Shown: one piece after another, positions 26,456 to 48,222 of the stretch
How positions within the stretch are numbered: position 1 is the stretch's first letter
How the letters are laid out: each line of letters starts with the position of its first letter
Origin: a virus
Length of the DNA stretch: 50,463 nucleotides
UHGV virus genome: UHGV-1368742
Strand: one strand, 5' to 3'
Program-made: the position numbers and the translations under genes
The notes under the pieces: model-generated
Told to the model about the DNA's origin: nothing
The model's input: the letters and a program-made list of their open reading frames with translations, nothing else
Databases searched by the model: none

Positions 26456-27199
26456 CTACAAGTCTAGCATACCTATTAACTTCTTATAATTTAGAATACG
26501 AACTTTATATTTCCCTCTCACTGTCCAATTCTTCTGAATAGCCTGTGTTATATTTACTTTTCCATTGAAGAATTTCATCGCTTCTGTCTTTGAATAGAAA
26601 TAATACTTTTTATGAGTTTCAATATCAGTTATAACGATTGAATGGTACATGCATTTTTTATTTATCTTTAACACTCTTTCTAAATTTGTATCTTGTAACA
26701 AATAATATTCTTTGCACCTTGTATTCAACCCTCTAAATGTTCTATGCAATTCATCCTGTGCTTCTTTCATATTTGTAAAAGCTCCTACAAAATTCAATCT
26801 AAAATCGTACACATAACACTTTCCTTTTCCATTAGCACCCCACATTTTCTCTACAGTGTTTTCATTAGCCATGTTTTCTTTTTGTGTACACCATCTAAGA
26901 TTGTTTGGTTTGTTATTCAGTTTGTTCCCATCTATATTGTCAACAATGTTTCTTTCTTCTGTATGACCTTTTACAAATGCATAAGCCATTAATCTATGCA
27001 CAAAACATTTTTTCCATCTTCTTTCACCTTGTAGCTTCAATGCTACCTGTTTATATCCACTACTATTAAAACTCTGTACCAATTCCATTCCATCTTTTCC
27101 ATAGACATTTCCATATTTGTCTATTTCATATATATCTAATACTTGTTCATATTCTGTTGCTAATGTATTTACTTTCTTTCTCTCATACATCACTGGCAA
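26456..27199 (-). CDS. free-standing HNH homing endonuclease (HNH_3 family)
   Basis: VHRLMAYAFV...VDNIDGNKLNNKPNNLRWCTQKEN matches the HNH_3 motif. Annotated start is TTG; an ATG 9 nt downstream has a better RBS (AGGAGG). Confidence 0.7.
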   Translation of the reverse strand: MPVMYERKKVNTLATEYEQVLDIYEIDKYGNVYGKDGMELVQSFNSSGYKQVALKLQGERRWKKCFVHRLMAYAFVKGHTEERNIVDNIDGNKLNNKPNNLRWCTQKENMANENTVEKMWGANGKGKCYVYDFRLNFVGAFTNMKEAQDELHRTFRGLNTRCKEYYLLQDTNLERVLKINKKCMYHSIVITDIETHKKYYFYSKTEAMKFFNGKVNITQAIQKNWTVRGKYKVRILNYKKLIGMLDL

Positions 27200-27271
27200 C
27201 CTCCTTTATAATATTGTCGCAATAGCTCTTGGGAACATTATTCTTTCGTCAGTTCCTATGCGTTGCACGTG

Positions 27272-27598
27272 TCAAACAGCCATACGCTGTAAGACTTCCG
27301 TTCTGGTCTGCATTTCAGCCTTTCCAGTTTTTTCTATCGCTTTATACACCCCTAGTCTTGTGGTATTTTTAAAGGTGTGAGCATCTATGTTAAATTCATC
27401 ATATATTACATTGCCTTTTGCATCCCTTGCATACGTTAAATCTTTCAATTCCTTTATTGTGTTTCTACACTTAGGAGAACATATAACCTTCTTAAAACGT
27501 TTTATCTTCTTTGTGTTCTGTAGTCTACTTCCCGCATACTTTTTACAAGCATACATATTGAATCCCTCTTGTCTATAATACTGTATTGACTTTGGTTC
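27272..27598 (-). CDS. terL: terminase large subunit, 3' exon (nuclease C-terminus)
   Basis: The frame is open from the stop at 27602 and reads [29 protein letters not shown]...[26 protein letters not shown]. This matches the TerL consensus ADSAEPKSI...AKKG.GS...C.N.I.EL..Y.W..DK.GN. The exact 5' boundary is ambiguous (27589 or 27598). Confidence 0.6.
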
Positions 27599-28439
27599 TA
27601 TTTATATTCTATGCGGTTCGCTACTCCGCACACGTTCTCTAATGAACTGCTGTAATTCTCATTACAGATTAGACTATATCTTAGCATTTCTGCTCCACAT
27701 GTTTCGGAACGCTTGTTCCTACTCTACTTACTTCCATTACATTTTCCATATCTAACATAATGTGTTTTCGATAGTCGTTGAATAGCTTGTTCTTTCGAAA
27801 GTTTTTTATATGAAAACAAATAACCTTTATGTTGTCTTTCTATTCCTCTACAGACATTTGCAACATGACTTCTATTAAATCCATCATAACTTGCTTCTGT
27901 TGTTGAAACATAGCTTCTAATATAATTCCCATCTAAATCATATTTATAAACTGTCTTCGCTAAACTCCAATTGTTATTCTCTCTAGGAGTTACCCAATTT
28001 AAGTTGTCTGCATTGTTATTCTTTCTATCTTCATCTTTATGATTGACATATTTTCTTTTTGACGTTCTCCCTTTTACAAACGCCAACGCTACTAACCTAT
28101 TAACACGCAAATAGTTTGTTTTATTATGTTTCGTTGTCAATGCTACGTTTAAATAACCGCCTGTCTTTTCATACTGCTTTAGCTCGTGTCTATTACTCAT
28201 ACTCACGTTCCCATGCTTATCTCTTAACGAAAATACTCTGCCATCATACGAAACATAATATCCATCATTTATATGTTCTAATCCTTTTATTTTATTTATT
28301 TGTTTTACTTTCATATATTTATTCCTCCGTTTACTTTAAACTACTACTGGTTGACTAATCCATTGAATTGTCACTCTATGGTATCAATGGCTCTAAAGTG
28401 TTTCCAGTATTCAATGTGGTTTTATGCGACCAAACCTTT
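27599..28439 (-). mobile_element. group I intron in terL carrying an HNH homing endonuclease gene (boundaries +/-10 nt)
   Basis: It separates TerL ...IYADAA(KG) from EPKSI.... It contains the conserved group I P7/J8-7-like element gcuAAGAUAUAGUCuaauc (plus strand 27640s-27660s). The 5' exon can end in U (GCU or GGU). Contains ORF 27724..28314. Confidence 0.5.
27724..28314 (-). CDS. intron-encoded HNH homing endonuclease (HNH_3 plus NUMOD-like C-terminus)
   Basis: LVALAFVKG...VNHKDEDRKNNNADNLNWVTPREN matches HNH_3. The C-terminus YDGFNRSHVANVCRGIERQHKGYLFSY is shared with the 40475..41569 N-domain. RBS GGAGGA. Confidence 0.75.
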   Translation of the reverse strand: MKVKQINKIKGLEHINDGYYVSYDGRVFSLRDKHGNVSMSNRHELKQYEKTGGYLNVALTTKHNKTNYLRVNRLVALAFVKGRTSKRKYVNHKDEDRKNNNADNLNWVTPRENNNWSLAKTVYKYDLDGNYIRSYVSTTEASYDGFNRSHVANVCRGIERQHKGYLFSYKKLSKEQAIQRLSKTHYVRYGKCNGSK

Positions 28440-29492
28440 AGCCGCATCCGCATATATTGGTTTATTACATCTTTCAGCTCTTTGTTTTGTTTTCCTTACT
28501 CCATCCAATAAAATAAATTTATTATCTGTTATATGGTTTCTGTATACTTCATCATAAATATAAAGTATTTTATTTTTATCATCTACTGCACAACTAATCA
28601 ACGCATTATAACTTGTTTCAAAACCAAAGTCCAAACCAAAGAAATGATATTTACTTGGTATGTTTGTTATTGTATTTGTAAATTGTTTTGCGTTTGTTGC
28701 AATCGTAAATTGTGGCAATACTCTTGTTCCACTTGCTCCGAATCTTCCCCACCTTGCAACCGTCCATAAATGCGGGTCATTTATCTTTAATCCATCCAAA
28801 CGTTTTATGTATGACACTGGCAAGAAAGGATTATCGTCTGCAATACTATGATGGTAATATACTCCATTCTTTTTGTTTACTAATGTTCTTCTCTTGTATA
28901 TCTCCTGTTCTTCCTGTATTACGTGTTCTTTTCCTTTATCATCTGTATGCGTAAAAAATGTGTTATATACCCAATTCTCTTTCCCTACTGGGTTTGTTGT
29001 CATAATAAAGTGTAATGACATTTTAGGCTCTCTGATACGTCCTAAAAGCTCTGTATAAGCGTCATAACGTATTTCACTACACTCTTCCATCCAAACGATA
29101 GAAACACCATGTATGGACTTTATTTTCTCTACATTGTCCATTCCTCTGAATATAATTCTGCTACCATTTGAAAATCTTACTTCCATTGGTGACATAACCG
29201 CTACAGCCTTTCCATTCTTCGGCAAGTGCTGATTAGGTAGCGATTCATCACTTAACATGTTCATCTTTTCTAGTATCTCTTTGAATAATGCAAAACACGA
29301 TTCTTTTATTGTTCCATATACCTGTCTTACTACCAAACAGGTTCTTCTTTCTTCTAGTAATTTTAATATGATTTTAAGTGCAACATGGTAACTCTTACCA
29401 CTACCATATCCACCGAATAAAAGGTACTGTTCATAATTCCAATCTGTTAAAAAAGTGGAGAATCTTTTTGAAACATCAATGTTTACATCCAT
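28440..29492 (-). CDS. terL: terminase large subunit, 5' exon (ATPase plus start of nuclease domain)
   Basis: Walker A LLFGGYGSGKS; nuclease start FGLDFGFETSYNALI; ends ...KPIYADAA. The likely start is MDVNIDVSKRF at 29492 (RBS AAAGGAG), not the upstream M at 29558. Confidence 0.85.
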
Positions 29493-29611
29493 GTTCTTTT
29501 CTCCTTTTGTTTTAGTTTGTTTGTAATAACAGAAAAGGACAGATACATCACTTTGCATCTGCCTTTCTGTTTGAATTAATTATACCATATTATATTTTGT
29601 TCGTCAATGCT

Positions 29612-29972: not shown

Positions 29973-30045
29973 TGGATTATATAGGACTCGAACCTATAAC
30001 TTGCCGCTTATGAGGCGGTTGCTCTAACCATTGAACTAATAATCC
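29973..30045 (-). tRNA. tRNA-Met (or Ile2), anticodon CAU
   Basis: Minus strand reads GGATTATTAGTTCAATGGTTAGAGCAACCGCCTCATAAGCGGCAAG...GGTTCGAGTCCTATATAATCCA. Cloverleaf with a GTTCGAGTC T-arm; the anticodon loop CUCAUAA carries CAU. No encoded CCA. Confidence 0.75.
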
Positions 30046-30134
30046 TTATGTGTTGCTTTCATGCGCTTGAACATTACTCACAACACTTTAGCAAGAAAAG
30101 AAATTTGGTATGCACACCTTTTACAGTGTGCAAC

Positions 30135-30205
30135 TGCCTAGGTTGGATTCGAACCAACACATTAAGGAGTCAAAGTCCTTTGCCTTACCGTTTGGCTACT
30201 AAGCA
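30135..30205 (-). tRNA. tRNA-Gln, anticodon UUG
   Basis: Acceptor stem UGCUUAG/CUAGGCA (one G.U pair); D-stem GCC/GGC. Anticodon stem AAGGA/UCCUU with loop CUUUGAC. T-arm GUUGG-UUCGAAU-CCAAC. Confidence 0.7.
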
Positions 30206-44813: not shown

Positions 44814-45263
44814 CTACCTCGCCATTAATGTACTATTATATTTTACAACTCTACTCATATATTTGTTTTTGCTAAATTCAAGTGCGCCTTGTTCTTTTAA
44901 AGTTTTAATTACCCCCTTTGTAACACTTCTTCCTTTGCATCTATCATAGAAGTCATCATATGATTTAAACACGCCCTTTCTGCGCTCGTTTTCAATGGTT
45001 TCTGCGGCTTTTTCTCCAATGCCCTTAATAATACTTAACCCTTGCTGTATAACGTCCTCTCCATCCATTTTACGCAATGAAGTTTTAGCTGAATAATTAA
45101 CATGAGGTAGCATAACCACAGCACCGTCTTTTACTGCAAACTGTGAATACTTAAATATATCTGCATCATTATCTGCATACTTCATTTTAACATACCAAAA
45201 CTGTGTTGGATAATGTACTTTATAATACATCTGATCTATTGATATTAAAGCGTATCCTGTTGA
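44814..45263 (-). CDS. dnaE: DnaE-type DNA polymerase III alpha, exon 3 (HhH region)
   Basis: STGYALISIDQMYYKVHYPTQFW corresponds to consensus (H)AAAYALIAYQTAYLKAHYP. HhH motif GLSIIKGIGEKAAETI. Listed ORF 44814..45359 includes 32 intron-derived codons at its 5' end. Confidence 0.7.
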   Translation of the reverse strand, partial: STGYALISIDQMYYKVHYPTQFWYVKMKYADNDADIFKYSQFAVKDGAVVMLPHVNYSAKTSLRKMDGEDVIQQGLSIIKGIGEKAAETIENERRKGVFKSYDDFYDRCKGRSVTKGVIKTLKEQGALEFSKNKYMSRVVKYNSTLMAR

Positions 45264-45608
45264 CAATACCTCACACACTTTCATGTGCCACACTACGCTA
45301 AATGTGTTAAGGTTTGGAGCACACCAAAGACATAAGCTTTCACCCTTAGTCCTCTCCATTATGCTCTCTGAATCTTCCCATGTTATATAGGCTTGACTGC
45401 TGATTACCTATTATTTACTACTTAGCACCTCACAATAAGGCTTTTATTTCAGCTTATAGTATCTGAATGATTTTTTCTGAATTTCTTCCGCATTCACACT
45501 TTATTTTTCAATATATGTTGTAGCTCATTCAGCTTTAAGGACTCCCAGCATTTTCGGAGATTTTCAGCACACACTTTACATGTATACTGCACTCAACCTT
45601 TTAAGTCT
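45264..45608 (-). mobile_element. ORF-less intron 2 in dnaE (group I candidate)
   Basis: 5' exon ends ...GFNKGH with CAU (U at the junction); intron ends ...GUAUUG; 3' exon starts UCA (STGYAL). The joined sequence FNKGH|STGYALIS matches the consensus FNKSHAAAYALI in length. No HEG inside. Confidence 0.5.
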
Positions 45609-46685
45609 ATGACCCTTATTAAAGCCATATATGAGCATGCTCGCCCATATGCTATTTGTTTGTTCTTTCGTCAATCCCTCTTGTCGGCATCCTTTAAAAA
45701 AGTCTTTCTTCATTTGTTCAATAATTGGAACGTATTCTGGTTTTGTTAGGTTTTCTGCTTTTTTCATAATCTTCAACATATCAAAACTCTGCTGTGGTGT
45801 TAAGTGTCCAACTTTCTGTGCTACTTCAACCGTTTGTTCTTGGTATAGCATTGTTCCATATGTTTCTTGCGTATATTTATAATATGGTGTATTCTTATCC
45901 ACATTATCTGAAAGTTTATTATGTGCATATGTTTCATGCATGTGCAACTGTAATGGTGCTGGTCTGTTTAGCGCATTCACCGCTATAATATCATTAACAC
46001 AATCACACTGAATCATATCAAGAATCTTTTTAGGTGCTGACTTCTCCATCTGGAATATTCCATCTGTTCTTCCCTCTCTGAATCCCTCTATAACTTCTTT
46101 GCTTTCTTCATCCTCTTCTGTGATTGTATGACCTGTTTTCTCTCTTAACTCACGCATTTCCGACATTGTTTTAAGTCCGAGCATATCAAACTTTACACAA
46201 TTAATATGCTCTAAATCATCTTTGTCAAAACAACTGCTTAGCGCTCCTGTCTTTCTATCTCGCATAATAATACAAGTATAGTCACTTATGTCTGTTCCAA
46301 CCACAGCAACACCAGCCGAATGTTTTCCTAAATATTTTATCTTTCCATACAGTTTTGAAAAATGTTTTATAATGTTATCATACTTCTCATTGAACTCTTC
46401 TGTTCTGTATCCATTCAGCAAATTACTCATGTTCAGTTCATCATCTACTATGAATCCCTTAATATATGACTTAATTTCTGCAATCACTTTTTTATTTTCA
46501 TCTGCTTCAAACCAATCAACATCTTTTGTTGTTTTTAGATTACAAACACTTGCTAAATCATTCACAAGATTGTCAACTCCATACATGCCATAAGAACAAA
46601 TCTGTATTGCTTTGTTTGGATATTTGTTTATAACATAATCAATTACTTCTTGTCTCCTGTCTCGTTCGAAATCTAAGTCAATATC
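45609..46685 (-). CDS. dnaE: DnaE-type DNA polymerase III alpha, exon 2 (palm/fingers)
   Basis: The frame is open from the TAG at 46688 and reads DIDLDFERDRRQEVIDYVINKYPNKAIQICSYGMYGV.... This matches the consensus DIDIDF..RR.EVI.YV..KYG. Contains YQEQTVEVA and ends GFNKGH. Confidence 0.75.
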
Positions 46686-47028
46686 CTACCTTAGTCGTTC
46701 GTTTCCAAACTATCAAGGCTAGACTATATCTTCCACTACTGTGGCATTCGCACTTCGGAATGGTGCTTATCTCCATCCCTACCCCTGTTACTCTCTTCAC
46801 AAGCTAGTCGTTACACCTTTATATACATCTGTATACACTTGGCACGGTATTCCCTCTATCTCACCATCACTGGTTTAGGGTTTCTTAGTCAGATTATTCG
46901 TCTATGGTCTATGCCCTATTATCCTGTTGTAACATTTCAATAAGGAGTCTTATTTTTCTGATACCGTTAGCATATTATAATAATACACACCATTAAACAA
47001 TGTTCACGAATGATGCCCAATTAAGTTT
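46686..47028 (-). mobile_element. ORF-less group I intron 1 in dnaE
   Basis: 5' exon ends ...KKSLP with CCU; intron ends ...AAGGUAG; 3' exon starts GAU AUU GAC (DIDLDF). Contains a P7-like pairing cgACUAGc ... AAGAUAUAGUCUAGcc, which shares the AAGAUAUAGUC element with the terL intron. Confidence 0.6.
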
Positions 47029-48222
47029 AGGCAATGACTTCTTTTCCTTACGCATAAATCTGCTAAAATCAAGGTTATATTTTATACTATCAACTTCTGT
47101 GATTCCTACTGCATAAGCTACAAGGCAATTACAAACAGAGCCTCTTCCCTTTCCTGTTTCAATTCCATTTTCTTTCGCCCATGTTATGTAGTCTCTAACA
47201 ATAAGGAAATAGTCTGCAAATCCGTGGTAATTAATTACTTCCAATTCCTCTTTGCATCTTTTCCAATATTTCTTGTTCCATTTGTTTCTGTTTTTCAATC
47301 CCTGTTTTGTTAATGTTTCAAGCTGTTTCGCTCCATTATCTGATATTTTAGGAAGTTCTAGCTCCAAACCATCTAATATGTTATCTTCTACTTTGTTATA
47401 TATTTCTTTCATGTTATCTGCAAATCTTTCTGCAAGTTCCATTGGTCTTTTAAACTTCTTTTTATAGATTTTTGCAAATCTTTCTGTTATCTCATACTCT
47501 GTAGGCATGTACCTTTCACTGTATGTTCTTTTTACATCCAATGTTGTTTTTCCAATTTCATGCATTTTACAATATGTATCGAAATCTTCCTTACTTCCAA
47601 AATGTGAGTCACTTGTTAGAATACATTTAATATGTTTTCTTCTTGCCATTCCCATAAGTTCATAGTCTGTTCTTTGTTGTGTACCCTGTTCATCTATTTT
47701 ATATGGCTGTATTTCAACATACAAATCTTCTTTAAATATTTCCTTGAACTTATCTAGCAAACGCTCTGCTGTGCTTCTATGACCATTTAAAATGGCTTGT
47801 GATGTTGCACTTGCTATACAAGCTGTTGTACATATAAGTCCATCTGAATATTTTTCAAGTAACTTAAAATCAACTATTGGTTTGTAATAGAATTGTTTTG
47901 TGTTCGCTTCTGTCATAATGTGACATAAATTTTTGTACCCTTGCAAATTCTTCACAAACAAATTCAGATGGTAGCTTTTTCTCTGTGGATTTTCTTTATT
48001 GAATTTTGGTTGAAAATATATTTCACATCCCATGACTGGTTTTATTCCAACTTCATTACACGCTTGGTAGTGTTTTATTAATCCACTAATAGAACCATGA
48101 TTACTTACACCTAACGCTCTATATCCTAATTCTTTTGCGTGTTTTGCTAACTGTTCTGGCTTACCAAATCCATCAAACAATGAATATTCATCATGTCTGT
48201 GGATATCCCAAAAATTTCCCAT
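47029..48222 (-). CDS. dnaE: DnaE-type DNA polymerase III alpha, exon 1 (PHP domain)
   Basis: MGNFWDIHRHDEYSLFDGFGKPEQLAKHAKELGYRALGVSNHGSISG matches the PHP-domain signature. Ends ...ITEVDSIKYNLDFSRFMRKEKKSLP, before the intron. Confidence 0.75.

Follow-up and report, generated by a model that had tools for sequence, protein, structure and literature searches.

A viral dnaE gene very probably interrupted by two group I introns of different lineages

The virus genome UHGV-1368742, a stretch of 50,463 nucleotides (nt) that is referred to here as the window, carries on its minus strand three consecutive open reading frames (ORFs; 46993..48222, 45576..46586, and 44814..45359) that correspond to the PHP domain, the palm/fingers, and the HhH region of the alpha subunit of a DnaE-type DNA polymerase III (Pol III alpha); at this dnaE locus, ORF callers predict three separate proteins (409, 336, and 181 amino acids, aa). 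The locus raises the question of whether the polymerase gene is dead, is expressed as fragments, or is a single gene from whose transcript two intervals are removed. An initial annotation, made from the sequence, took the three ORFs to be one Pol III alpha gene split by two ORF-less introns of about 345 nt, and the analysis bears this out: dnaE is very probably split by two self-splicing group I introns of different lineages, whose removal restores one Pol III alpha. The gene anatomy, the precise presence/absence polymorphism of the intervals, the covariation of their RNA helices, and purifying selection on the exons are observed. The anatomy is as follows (a caret marks an intron position or exon junction).

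dnaE exon 1, 48222..47029, minus strand: 1194 nt, 398 codons; covers the PHP domain and the beginning of the palm, ending in ...KKSLP, last base U.
Intron 1, 47028..46686, minus strand: 343 nt, ORF-less, assigned to group I; inserted after the Pro codon of P^DIDLD, ahead of the first catalytic Asp codon.
dnaE exon 2, 46685..45609, minus strand: 1077 nt, 359 codons; palm and fingers, from DIDLDF... to ...GFNKGH, last base U.
Intron 2, 45608..45264, minus strand: 345 nt, ORF-less, assigned to group I; inside the FNK(G/S)H^S motif of the fingers.
dnaE exon 3, 45263..44814, minus strand: 450 nt, 149 codons and stop; STGYALIS... and the HhH domain.
Predicted spliced junction 1, minus strand: ...UCAUUGCCU^GAUAUUGAC...
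Predicted spliced junction 2, minus strand: ...AAGGGUCAU^UCAACAGGA...

These boundaries, which are those of the initial annotation, are confirmed by exon lengths that are each divisible by three and by the exact absence of both intervals from a relative (see below). The length of intron 1 is not a multiple of three, and both introns contain 7–13 stop codons in every frame, the first in-frame stop lying 11–12 codons in. As had been noted, both 5′ exons end in U (T in the DNA, at 47029 and 45609) and both introns end in G (46686 and 45264). All relatives of the two introns have a terminal G as well. The joined coding sequence (CDS) yields a continuous 906-aa Pol III alpha with Pfam matches to PHP (6–172), DNA_pol3_alpha (300–568), finger (573–731), and HHH_6 (805–887), and the DNA_pol3_alpha match crosses junction 1 (aa 398/399). 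In a comparison with solved structures, this product aligns gap-free over both junctions with Thermus aquaticus Pol III alpha (2hpi), RFMRKEKKSLP^DIDLDF lying opposite RFLNPERVSMPDIDTDF at junction 1 and YGFNKGH^STGYALIS opposite YGFNKSHAAAYSLLS at junction 2. The intron 1 site falls between the equivalents of Taq P462 and D463, just before the first Asp of PDIDxD, and both intron sites are among the most conserved codon stretches of Pol III alpha.

Related phages with an uninterrupted dnaE, a check that the initial annotation had proposed, were found. When the spliced product was used as a protein query, 81 clusters came back that are exactly 906 aa long, uninterrupted, and 95–98% identical, together with three 767-aa products that consist of exons 1 and 2 followed by a 10-codon read-through into intron 2; the latter correspond to intron-2-only alleles. 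The DNA of contig L003 is colinear with the window except for the exact loss of 343 and 345 nt and is continuous over both sites, exon 1 and exon 2 are continuous in the intron-less homologues L003, L005, L006, and L041, and the predicted junctions are thus those of intron-less relatives. Contig L004 is without intron 1 and has an intron 2 of 1145 nt containing a 266-aa LAGLIDADG_3 ORF; L050, like L004, has intron 2 with a 266-aa LAGLIDADG ORF. A comparison of 58 related loci gave the following occupancy.

Site 1: intron present in 19 loci, absent from 37; inserts of 262, 343/344, 438, 656, 770, 823/824, and 840/842 nt.
Site 2: intron present in 3 loci, absent from 51; inserts of 345 and 1145 nt.

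All allele states (no intron, intron 1 only, intron 2 only, and both) occur among the relatives. The initial annotation had allowed that the intervals might prove to be coding sequence in homologous phages; they are not, being either precisely missing or occupied by the same intron with an endonuclease ORF in a peripheral loop. The ORFs of the long forms belong to HNH_3 (intron 1; ~160 aa, at the position of the P6a hairpin) and LAGLIDADG_3 (intron 2), and what sets the shorter site 1 forms apart from the longer ones is that the ORF in one loop has been lost in part or entirely. A graded series was seen among the intron 1 relatives, in which the HNH ORF is partly or fully deleted in L032 (656 nt), L048 (438 nt), and L053 (262 nt) vs. 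L033 (824 nt) and L047 (770 nt), and in which a ~110-nt extension of P5 is also present in some copies and absent from others; the series looks like snapshots of a homing-endonuclease gain-and-decay cycle.

The exons evolve as parts of a functional gene would. Against four uninterrupted homologues, each exon shows 0.27–0.75 synonymous substitutions per site (dS) and a ratio of nonsynonymous to synonymous substitution rates (dN/dS) of 0.013–0.055, with neither frameshift nor stop. The codons at the junctions, compared across L003–L058, differ between occupied and empty sites: the last codon of exon 1 (window 47029–47031) is Pro CCU in 19/19 intron 1 alleles vs. 3/37 empty ones (Fisher p = 3.6e-12), the other 34 empty alleles having CCA, CCG, or CCC, mostly CCA. 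At site 2 (window 45261–45263), all three intron 2 alleles read GUCAU^UCAAC, as do 3/51 empty sites (p = 8e-4), so that occupied sites have CAU^UCA and empty ones mostly CAU or CAC followed by AGC or AGU. This bias fits a requirement for U at −1 together with P1/P10 pairing, co-conversion of the flanks during homing, or empty sites that are resistant to the endonuclease.

The intervals themselves evolve as RNA, and the minimum-free-energy z-scores of the two introns are −1.9 and −2.3. A search of IMG/VR with the core pattern TAACGACTA..AGATAAGCAC..ATAGTCTA recovered the intron 1 RNA from 13 unrelated contigs at the same P^D(I/V)D site; the downstream exon begins D(I/V)D in 13/13 and the upstream exon ends (L/M)P wherever it could be matched, and the flanking exon shows only 35–60% aa identity. 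The elements assigned to intron 1 are as follows.

Internal guide sequence GGGCA, 47014..47018, minus strand: forms P1 with UGCCU at the end of the exon, the splice-site pair being U.G.
P3 5′ strand CAUUCGUG, 47005..47012, minus strand: partner at 46745..46753; 100% paired, 5/7 pairs changed on both sides.
Two hairpins, 46973..47002, minus strand: A at 46991..47002 and B at 46973..46985, between the P3 5′ strand and J3/4.
P4-P5 domain, 46838..46971, minus strand: GCUAACGGUAU (46961..46971) pairs with the Q element AAUACCGUG (46838..46851).
P6a hairpin, 46820..46837, minus strand: site of the HNH ORF in relatives.
Catalytic core, 46719..46819, minus strand: P6′/J6-7/P7 (AAGGUGUAACGACUAG), P7.1, P7.2, P3′, P8, and J8/7 with P7′ (AAGAUAUAGUCUAG).
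P9 stem with GAAA tetraloop, and terminal G (46686), 46686..46718, minus strand: every family member ends in G.

The P4-P5 domain encloses the ~110-nt P5 extension, which is absent in the short relatives L053 and L075. For covariation, 17 sequences were aligned after loop ORFs and the variable P5 extension had been trimmed, and 39 pairs were counted, in P1, P3, hairpin A, P4, P6, P7, P7.2, and P8: 97.4% of cells are paired and 24/39 pairs change on both sides, values reached in 0/500 shuffles, and sliding the 3′ partners by 1–3 columns lowers pairing to 32–40%. Hairpin A is 100% paired with 3/4 pairs compensatory; hairpin B, P7.1, part of P8, and P9 were judged by inspection and stand outside the formal count because MAFFT lost their register. 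The splice-site U.G of P1 is present in 17/17 sequences, and its neighbouring pair changes from G-C to A-U in the Clostridium phages CS266P1 and CS266P3 (UACCU/GGGUA) through a synonymous change in the exon Leu codon and a C-to-U change in the guide sequence. The classical elements can be recognized as GCUAACGGU (P), AAUACCGUGCC (Q), GUAACGACUA (R), and AAGAUAUAGUC (S), and the P7-like pairing that the initial annotation saw in this intron is a P7 within the covariation-supported core. P10 pairs AAUAUU with GAUAUU in relatives and has only 3 bp in the window copy. An alternative P3, formed by UGCU before J3/4 and AGCA in L7.2 and followed by a CAUUC/GAAUG hairpin as P8, was rejected because that hairpin is not kept in L053. 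As a separate observation, the invariant L7.2 loop AGAUAAGCA of the intron 1 lineage is complementary to the UGCU before J3/4; both sides of this possible UGCU/AGCA contact are invariant, one of them being fixed by the search pattern, and the contact is absent from an intron of Streptococcus thermophilus phages discussed below.

The intron 2 RNA belongs to another lineage, being distantly similar by blastn to introns of Twort-like Staphylococcus phages (66–69% over ~200 nt). Its principal elements, and the helices in which the window copy and its relatives differ, are listed here.

Guide region GGUUGAGUG, 45590..45598, minus strand: GUG with exon CAU would form P1 (U.G); GUUGA is complementary to 3′ exon UCAAC (P10); GGUU closes the P1 extension.
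Core, 45317..45412, minus strand: Q element AAUAGGUAAUCAGCAGUCAAG, P6/P6a, J6/7, P7 GAGCA, P3′ GGAGA, P8, and P7′ UGCUC.
P3: window UCUCC/GGAGA, relatives CUUCC/GGAAG.
P7: window GAGCA/UGCUC, relatives GAACA/UGUUC.
P5a: window CUGAAUGA/UCAUUCAG, relatives CCGAAUAA/UUAUUCGG.
P5b: window UAUU/AAUA, relatives UACC/GGUA.
P9b: window GCACAU/GUGUGU, relatives GCUUAU/GUAAGU.
P1 extension: window GACU/GGUU, relatives CAAUU/GAUUG and CAAAC/GUUUG.

The differences between the window copy and its closest relatives are thus compensatory. The covariation set comprises six sequences (the window copy, two LAGLIDADG copies with the ORF trimmed, and three Staphylococcus-phage introns), and of the 41 pairs counted in P3, P4, P5, P5a, P5b, P5c, P6, P7, and P8, 23 are compensatory; 98.4% of cells are paired vs. 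30–44% in slid controls. A further IMG/VR search with TTCAGAGANCATAATGGA gave one new homologue (L172) and several chance matches in coding DNA, and the intron 2 covariation therefore rests on these six sequences from about four lineages. The initial annotation had found no obvious P7 in this intron; P7 exists, as the co-varying GAGCA/UGCUC (GAACA/UGUUC in L004) with an R-like AUUCAGAGA just before it, and was overlooked at first because its sequence is non-consensus. Merely UAAU lies between P7 and P3′, so P7.1 and P7.2 are lacking. Exon 3 opens with UCAAC, to which the GUUGA of the guide region is complementary. The least secure assignment is the exon part of P1, predicted from the sequence to be CAU/GUG (splice-site pair U.G) and to lie immediately 5′ of a 10-bp P2.

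The Q element of intron 2 matches the motif AAUAGGNAAUCNGCAGNCAAG, seen at 83 IMG/VR loci, and an R element GGUUCA(A/G)(C/A)GA follows within the next 90 nt in ~75/93 IMG/VR occurrences of the Q motif. The P5′-P4′-P6 motif AATAGGNAATCNGCAGNCAAG was likewise noted on 83 IMG/VR contigs (L135, L159, L163, and L167 among them), including metagenome-assembled genomes (MAGs) of giant viruses (several GVMAG contigs), with three copies within ~1 kb on some contigs, which suggests genes with several closely spaced group I introns.

In the proposed mechanism, dnaE would be transcribed as one precursor holding two group I ribozymes, each of which would fold into a canonical P3-P8/P4-P6 core. Free guanosine bound in P7 would attack the phosphodiester after the exon's last U, held opposite a G of the guide sequence in P1; the freed 5′ exon would then attack after the terminal G of the intron, with P10 aligning the 3′ exon, and completion of both reactions would leave an mRNA for a single 906-aa Pol III alpha. 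Translation of unspliced RNA would end at the in-frame stops 11–12 codons into the introns. The introns probably reached their sites by homing, through an HNH endonuclease in the case of intron 1 and a LAGLIDADG endonuclease in that of intron 2: sister copies hold an I-HmuI-like HNH gene in loop L6 of intron 1 and a LAGLIDADG gene in loop L6a of intron 2. The window copies are without an endonuclease gene and would therefore be in an ORF-less state of the homing cycle or be mobilized in trans during co-infection.

Several points weigh against this reading. Splicing, catalysis, and homing are inferred from the sequence. Both window introns are without an endonuclease gene of their own; the presence/absence polymorphism at fixed sites is clear, endonuclease ORFs sit in sister copies and none in the window copies, and present-day mobility is at most presumptive. 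The exon part of P1 in intron 2 has only 3 bp, its register comes from three sequences only, and one alternative register gives U-A, not U.G, at the splice site. Intron 1 is off the textbook helix order and that of the Rfam consensus, with two co-varying hairpins between the P3 5′ strand and J3/4: the P3 5′ strand comes directly after the guide sequence with no hairpin between P1 and P3, whereas in the more typical phage introns of the Q-motif search the P3 5′ strand immediately precedes J3/4. Of the features of subgroup IA2, intron 1 has co-varying P7.1/P7.2 yet departs from the P1-P2-P3-J3/4-P4 order. The same atypical order recurs at L178 830–885 and L179 455–520 and is shared by the S. thermophilus lysin intron and an intron of Enterococcus phage EF1, which marks it as characteristic of the lineage and not as a flaw of the window copy. 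Finally, the comparison with Rfam RF00028 (Intron_gpI) that had been proposed as a check gave no match in the window at the 50-bit gathering score; intron 1 has no RF00028 match even at E ≤ 10, and intron 2 is below gathering at 16.9 bits (E = 0.049; 376 nt searched in each case), with a partial alignment to P4-P5-P6-J6/7 (model positions 60–145). In a control, related Staphylococcus-phage introns scored only 28.8 and 39.2 bits and the Romulus intron was missed; the control introns being below threshold as well, the Rfam negative carries little weight and the check is uninformative. A study of Bastillevirinae introns likewise describes phage introns as escaping the Rfam and GISSD models (PMC11878797), and the RF00028 miss is a property of the model and not a defining biological feature.

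Could the ribozymes be dead? One or both introns might be group I-derived but inactive, with dnaE recently inactivated or dependent on a splicing factor of host or phage, or with the phage relying on host Pol III. The lack of an endonuclease ORF in both introns would mark a late stage of the homing cycle, at which degeneration is expected, and the guide region of intron 2 has A at one position where relatives have G; that A, however, improves P10 pairing with 3′ exon UCAAC. The core helices of intron 1 are all intact, the helix differences of intron 2 are compensatory (P3, P7, P9b, and P5a), the exons combine a reading frame free of frameshifts and stops with the low dN/dS given above, and an identical gene or intron is present in three independent samples, all of which makes a dead ribozyme improbable. 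The samples also bear on the view that the interruptions are an assembly or chimera artefact or another class of element, such as a group II intron, an insertion sequence (IS), or a miniature inverted-repeat transposable element (MITE). Although the window probably has a metagenomic source, the same structure recurs in independent ENA and Logan assemblies: the identical gene, with its whole 409/336/181-aa ORF arrangement, is in one further assembly, and the identical 181-aa exon 3 ORF and intron 2 are in two further ones, one of which also has the 336-aa ORF. Samples carrying the phage include the sources of ERZ28662756, ERR13898720, and ERZ27261243. Isolated and sequenced phages carry the intron as well, CS266P1–P4 having intron 1 and EF1 an intron of the same family; neither target-site duplications nor terminal inverted repeats were found at the intron boundaries; and 343/345 nt is too short for a group II intron (~600 nt minimum), of which Rfam finds no match at gathering or at E ≤ 10. 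An origin of this sort is scarcely credible.

Three separately translated ORFs whose fragments assemble without RNA splicing would account directly for the output of the ORF callers, and a precedent of a kind exists, since cyanobacteria have split dnaE genes that are joined by trans-splicing inteins. Fractured genes have been surveyed (PMC2677866). Exon 2 does not begin with a start codon, however; its first ATG, at 46586, is 33 codons in, and translation from there would lose the catalytic DIDLD. The ORF extensions into the introns (KLNWASFVNIV*, RLKRLSAVYM*, and MERTKGES...) are not conserved as protein, the intervals evolving as RNA helices, and close relatives have one 906-aa chain. An intein is excluded by the stops in every frame, the 343-nt length of intron 1, and the absence of intein blocks. 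A truly split gene is accordingly very unlikely, and two self-splicing group I introns in one dnaE gene remain by far the best account of the locus.

The closest isolated relatives of the window's phage are Clostridium phages CS266P1–P4 (OP172775-8; ~71–74% aa identity in DnaE), whose dnaE is annotated as two hypothetical proteins and a "DNA endonuclease I-HmuI". These phages have intron 1 at the identical site, with the compensatory P1 change (UACCU/GGGUA), but in a form of 840–842 nt with an HNH_3 (I-HmuI-like) ORF, and they are without intron 2, exons 2 and 3 being continuous (...GFNKGHSTGYTIIS...), so that the predicted junction 2 is that of CS266P1 as well. In Enterococcus phages EF1/EF5 (MF001358/MF001361), an intron annotated as "HNH homing endonuclease # Phage intron" lies between two Pol III alpha pieces. 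It belongs to the ribozyme family of intron 1, with which it has an identical core stretch of 33 nt (GGUAGGGAUGGAGAUAAGCACCAUUCCGAAGUGC) and the order of helices in common, and it too interrupts a phage C-family polymerase at this site (ELP^DVDID); it differs in its length of ~840 nt with an HNH gene in L6 (vs. 343 nt and ORF-less), in a polymerase that is only distantly related, and in having no second intron at the FNKSH site within the stretch examined. In the GenBank records of CS266P1 (L001 4143–4145) and EF1 (L179 1297–1299), the second polymerase CDS was started at an ATG that is the last three bases of the intron (..AAAUG^GAU.. and ..ACAUG^GAU..); the extra Met of the deposited protein is therefore spurious, and the annotation presents the gene as two proteins.

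More distant likenesses can be drawn for each intron. The intron in the lysin gene of S. thermophilus phages (2000 work as cited in PMC3952083) has P1, the P3 5′ strand, two hairpins, and GCUAA-P4 arranged as in intron 1 and shares GGUGUAACGACUA and AAGAUAUAGUCUAA with it; it differs in its host gene and in an endonuclease ORF in the P8 loop, not P6. Intron 2 shares its P3-P4-P5a/b/c-P6-P7 core with introns that Twort-like Staphylococcus phages such as Romulus and vB_ScaM-V1SC04 carry in the gene that follows tail sheath, whereas host gene, P1, P2, and P9 differ and P7 of intron 2 is non-consensus (GAGCA/UGCUC).

Group I introns of phage DNA-metabolism genes have long been known and include those of T4 td, nrdB, and nrdD and those of the SPO1, SP82, and Bastille DNA polymerase genes, in which I-HmuI-type nicking HNH endonucleases are encoded. 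The window follows this principle (group I introns at highly conserved codons, with or without a homing endonuclease, patchy among close relatives), but the SPO1, SP82, and Bastille polymerases are of family A, whereas the window polymerase is of the C family (DnaE-type), and unlike any of these genes it combines two introns of unrelated lineages, both ORF-less. The split inteins of cyanobacterial dnaE are alike in being selfish elements at a conserved dnaE site; they are translated and removed as protein, whereas the window intervals, with stops in every frame, evolve as RNA. Gut phages can hold many such introns: Jug phages are reported to have ~18 per genome, which interrupt terL and nrdD, their DNA polymerase genes are described as divided by endonuclease sequences, and metatranscriptomes confirm that some of the predicted introns are spliced (PMC12880540). 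A literature search found no paper on a group I intron in phage dnaE, only the EF1 GenBank annotation.

The window introns are a known kind of phage mobile element, well supported but ordinary; only the Rfam-invisible, atypically ordered lineage of intron 1 and its fidelity to the polymerase P^DxD site are mildly novel. It is conceivable, though somewhat doubtful, that this lineage is a distinct structural subclass of group I introns that present covariance models cannot detect. Its members may include the window copy, the introns of CS266P and EF1, the 13 IMG/VR contigs, and the S. thermophilus lysin intron, and its traits may be the lack of P2 between P1 and P3, two conserved extra hairpins, the invariant L7.2 AGAUAAGCA, and GGUGUAACGACUA in place of GGUUCA-R; one branch may be specialized for the catalytic P^DxD codons of C-family polymerases that share ~35–60% identity. 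In that case, many of the phage dnaE genes now annotated as a pair of "hypothetical proteins" would be intact, and the lineage would merit a model of its own.

For annotation, the locus shows how automatic pipelines read an essential replicase as three unrelated ORFs that, once the introns are recognized, become a single 906-aa Pol III alpha and not a fragmented or dead gene. Standard Rfam screening misses both introns, which makes this a concrete case of group I under-counting in gut-phage genomes. At two sites of one gene, the related phages between them show every stage of the homing cycle, from the empty site through an intron with endonuclease and one with a partly deleted ORF to an ORF-less intron, and the empty site has a strong synonymous-codon signature (CCA vs. 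CCU). Current concepts are unchanged by this textbook-style case, which holds no surprise.

The large terminase gene of the window (26456..29558, minus strand) is also interrupted. The ORF 28422..29558 matches Terminase_3 and the first 40 positions of Terminase_3C, and the ORF 27272..27556 matches Terminase_3C positions 76–145; the 3′ end of an HNH_3/NUMOD ORF (27724..28314) leads into a group I core (CAACGACUAUCG ... AAGAUAUAGUCUAA at 27672..27682), and a second HNH_3/NUMOD1 ORF (26456..27199) directly follows 27272..27556. The sequence element that the initial annotation described as shared by intron 1 and the terL intron is indeed present in both, AAGATATAGTC being exact at 46722–46732(−) and 27672–27682(−). 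A simple terL intron junction at ADAA^EPKS was considered and rejected, as it gives no terminal G. Two tRNA genes (29973..30045 at 66.8 bits and 30134..30205 at 66.9 bits, both on the minus strand) are close by terL, on its upstream side with respect to transcription.

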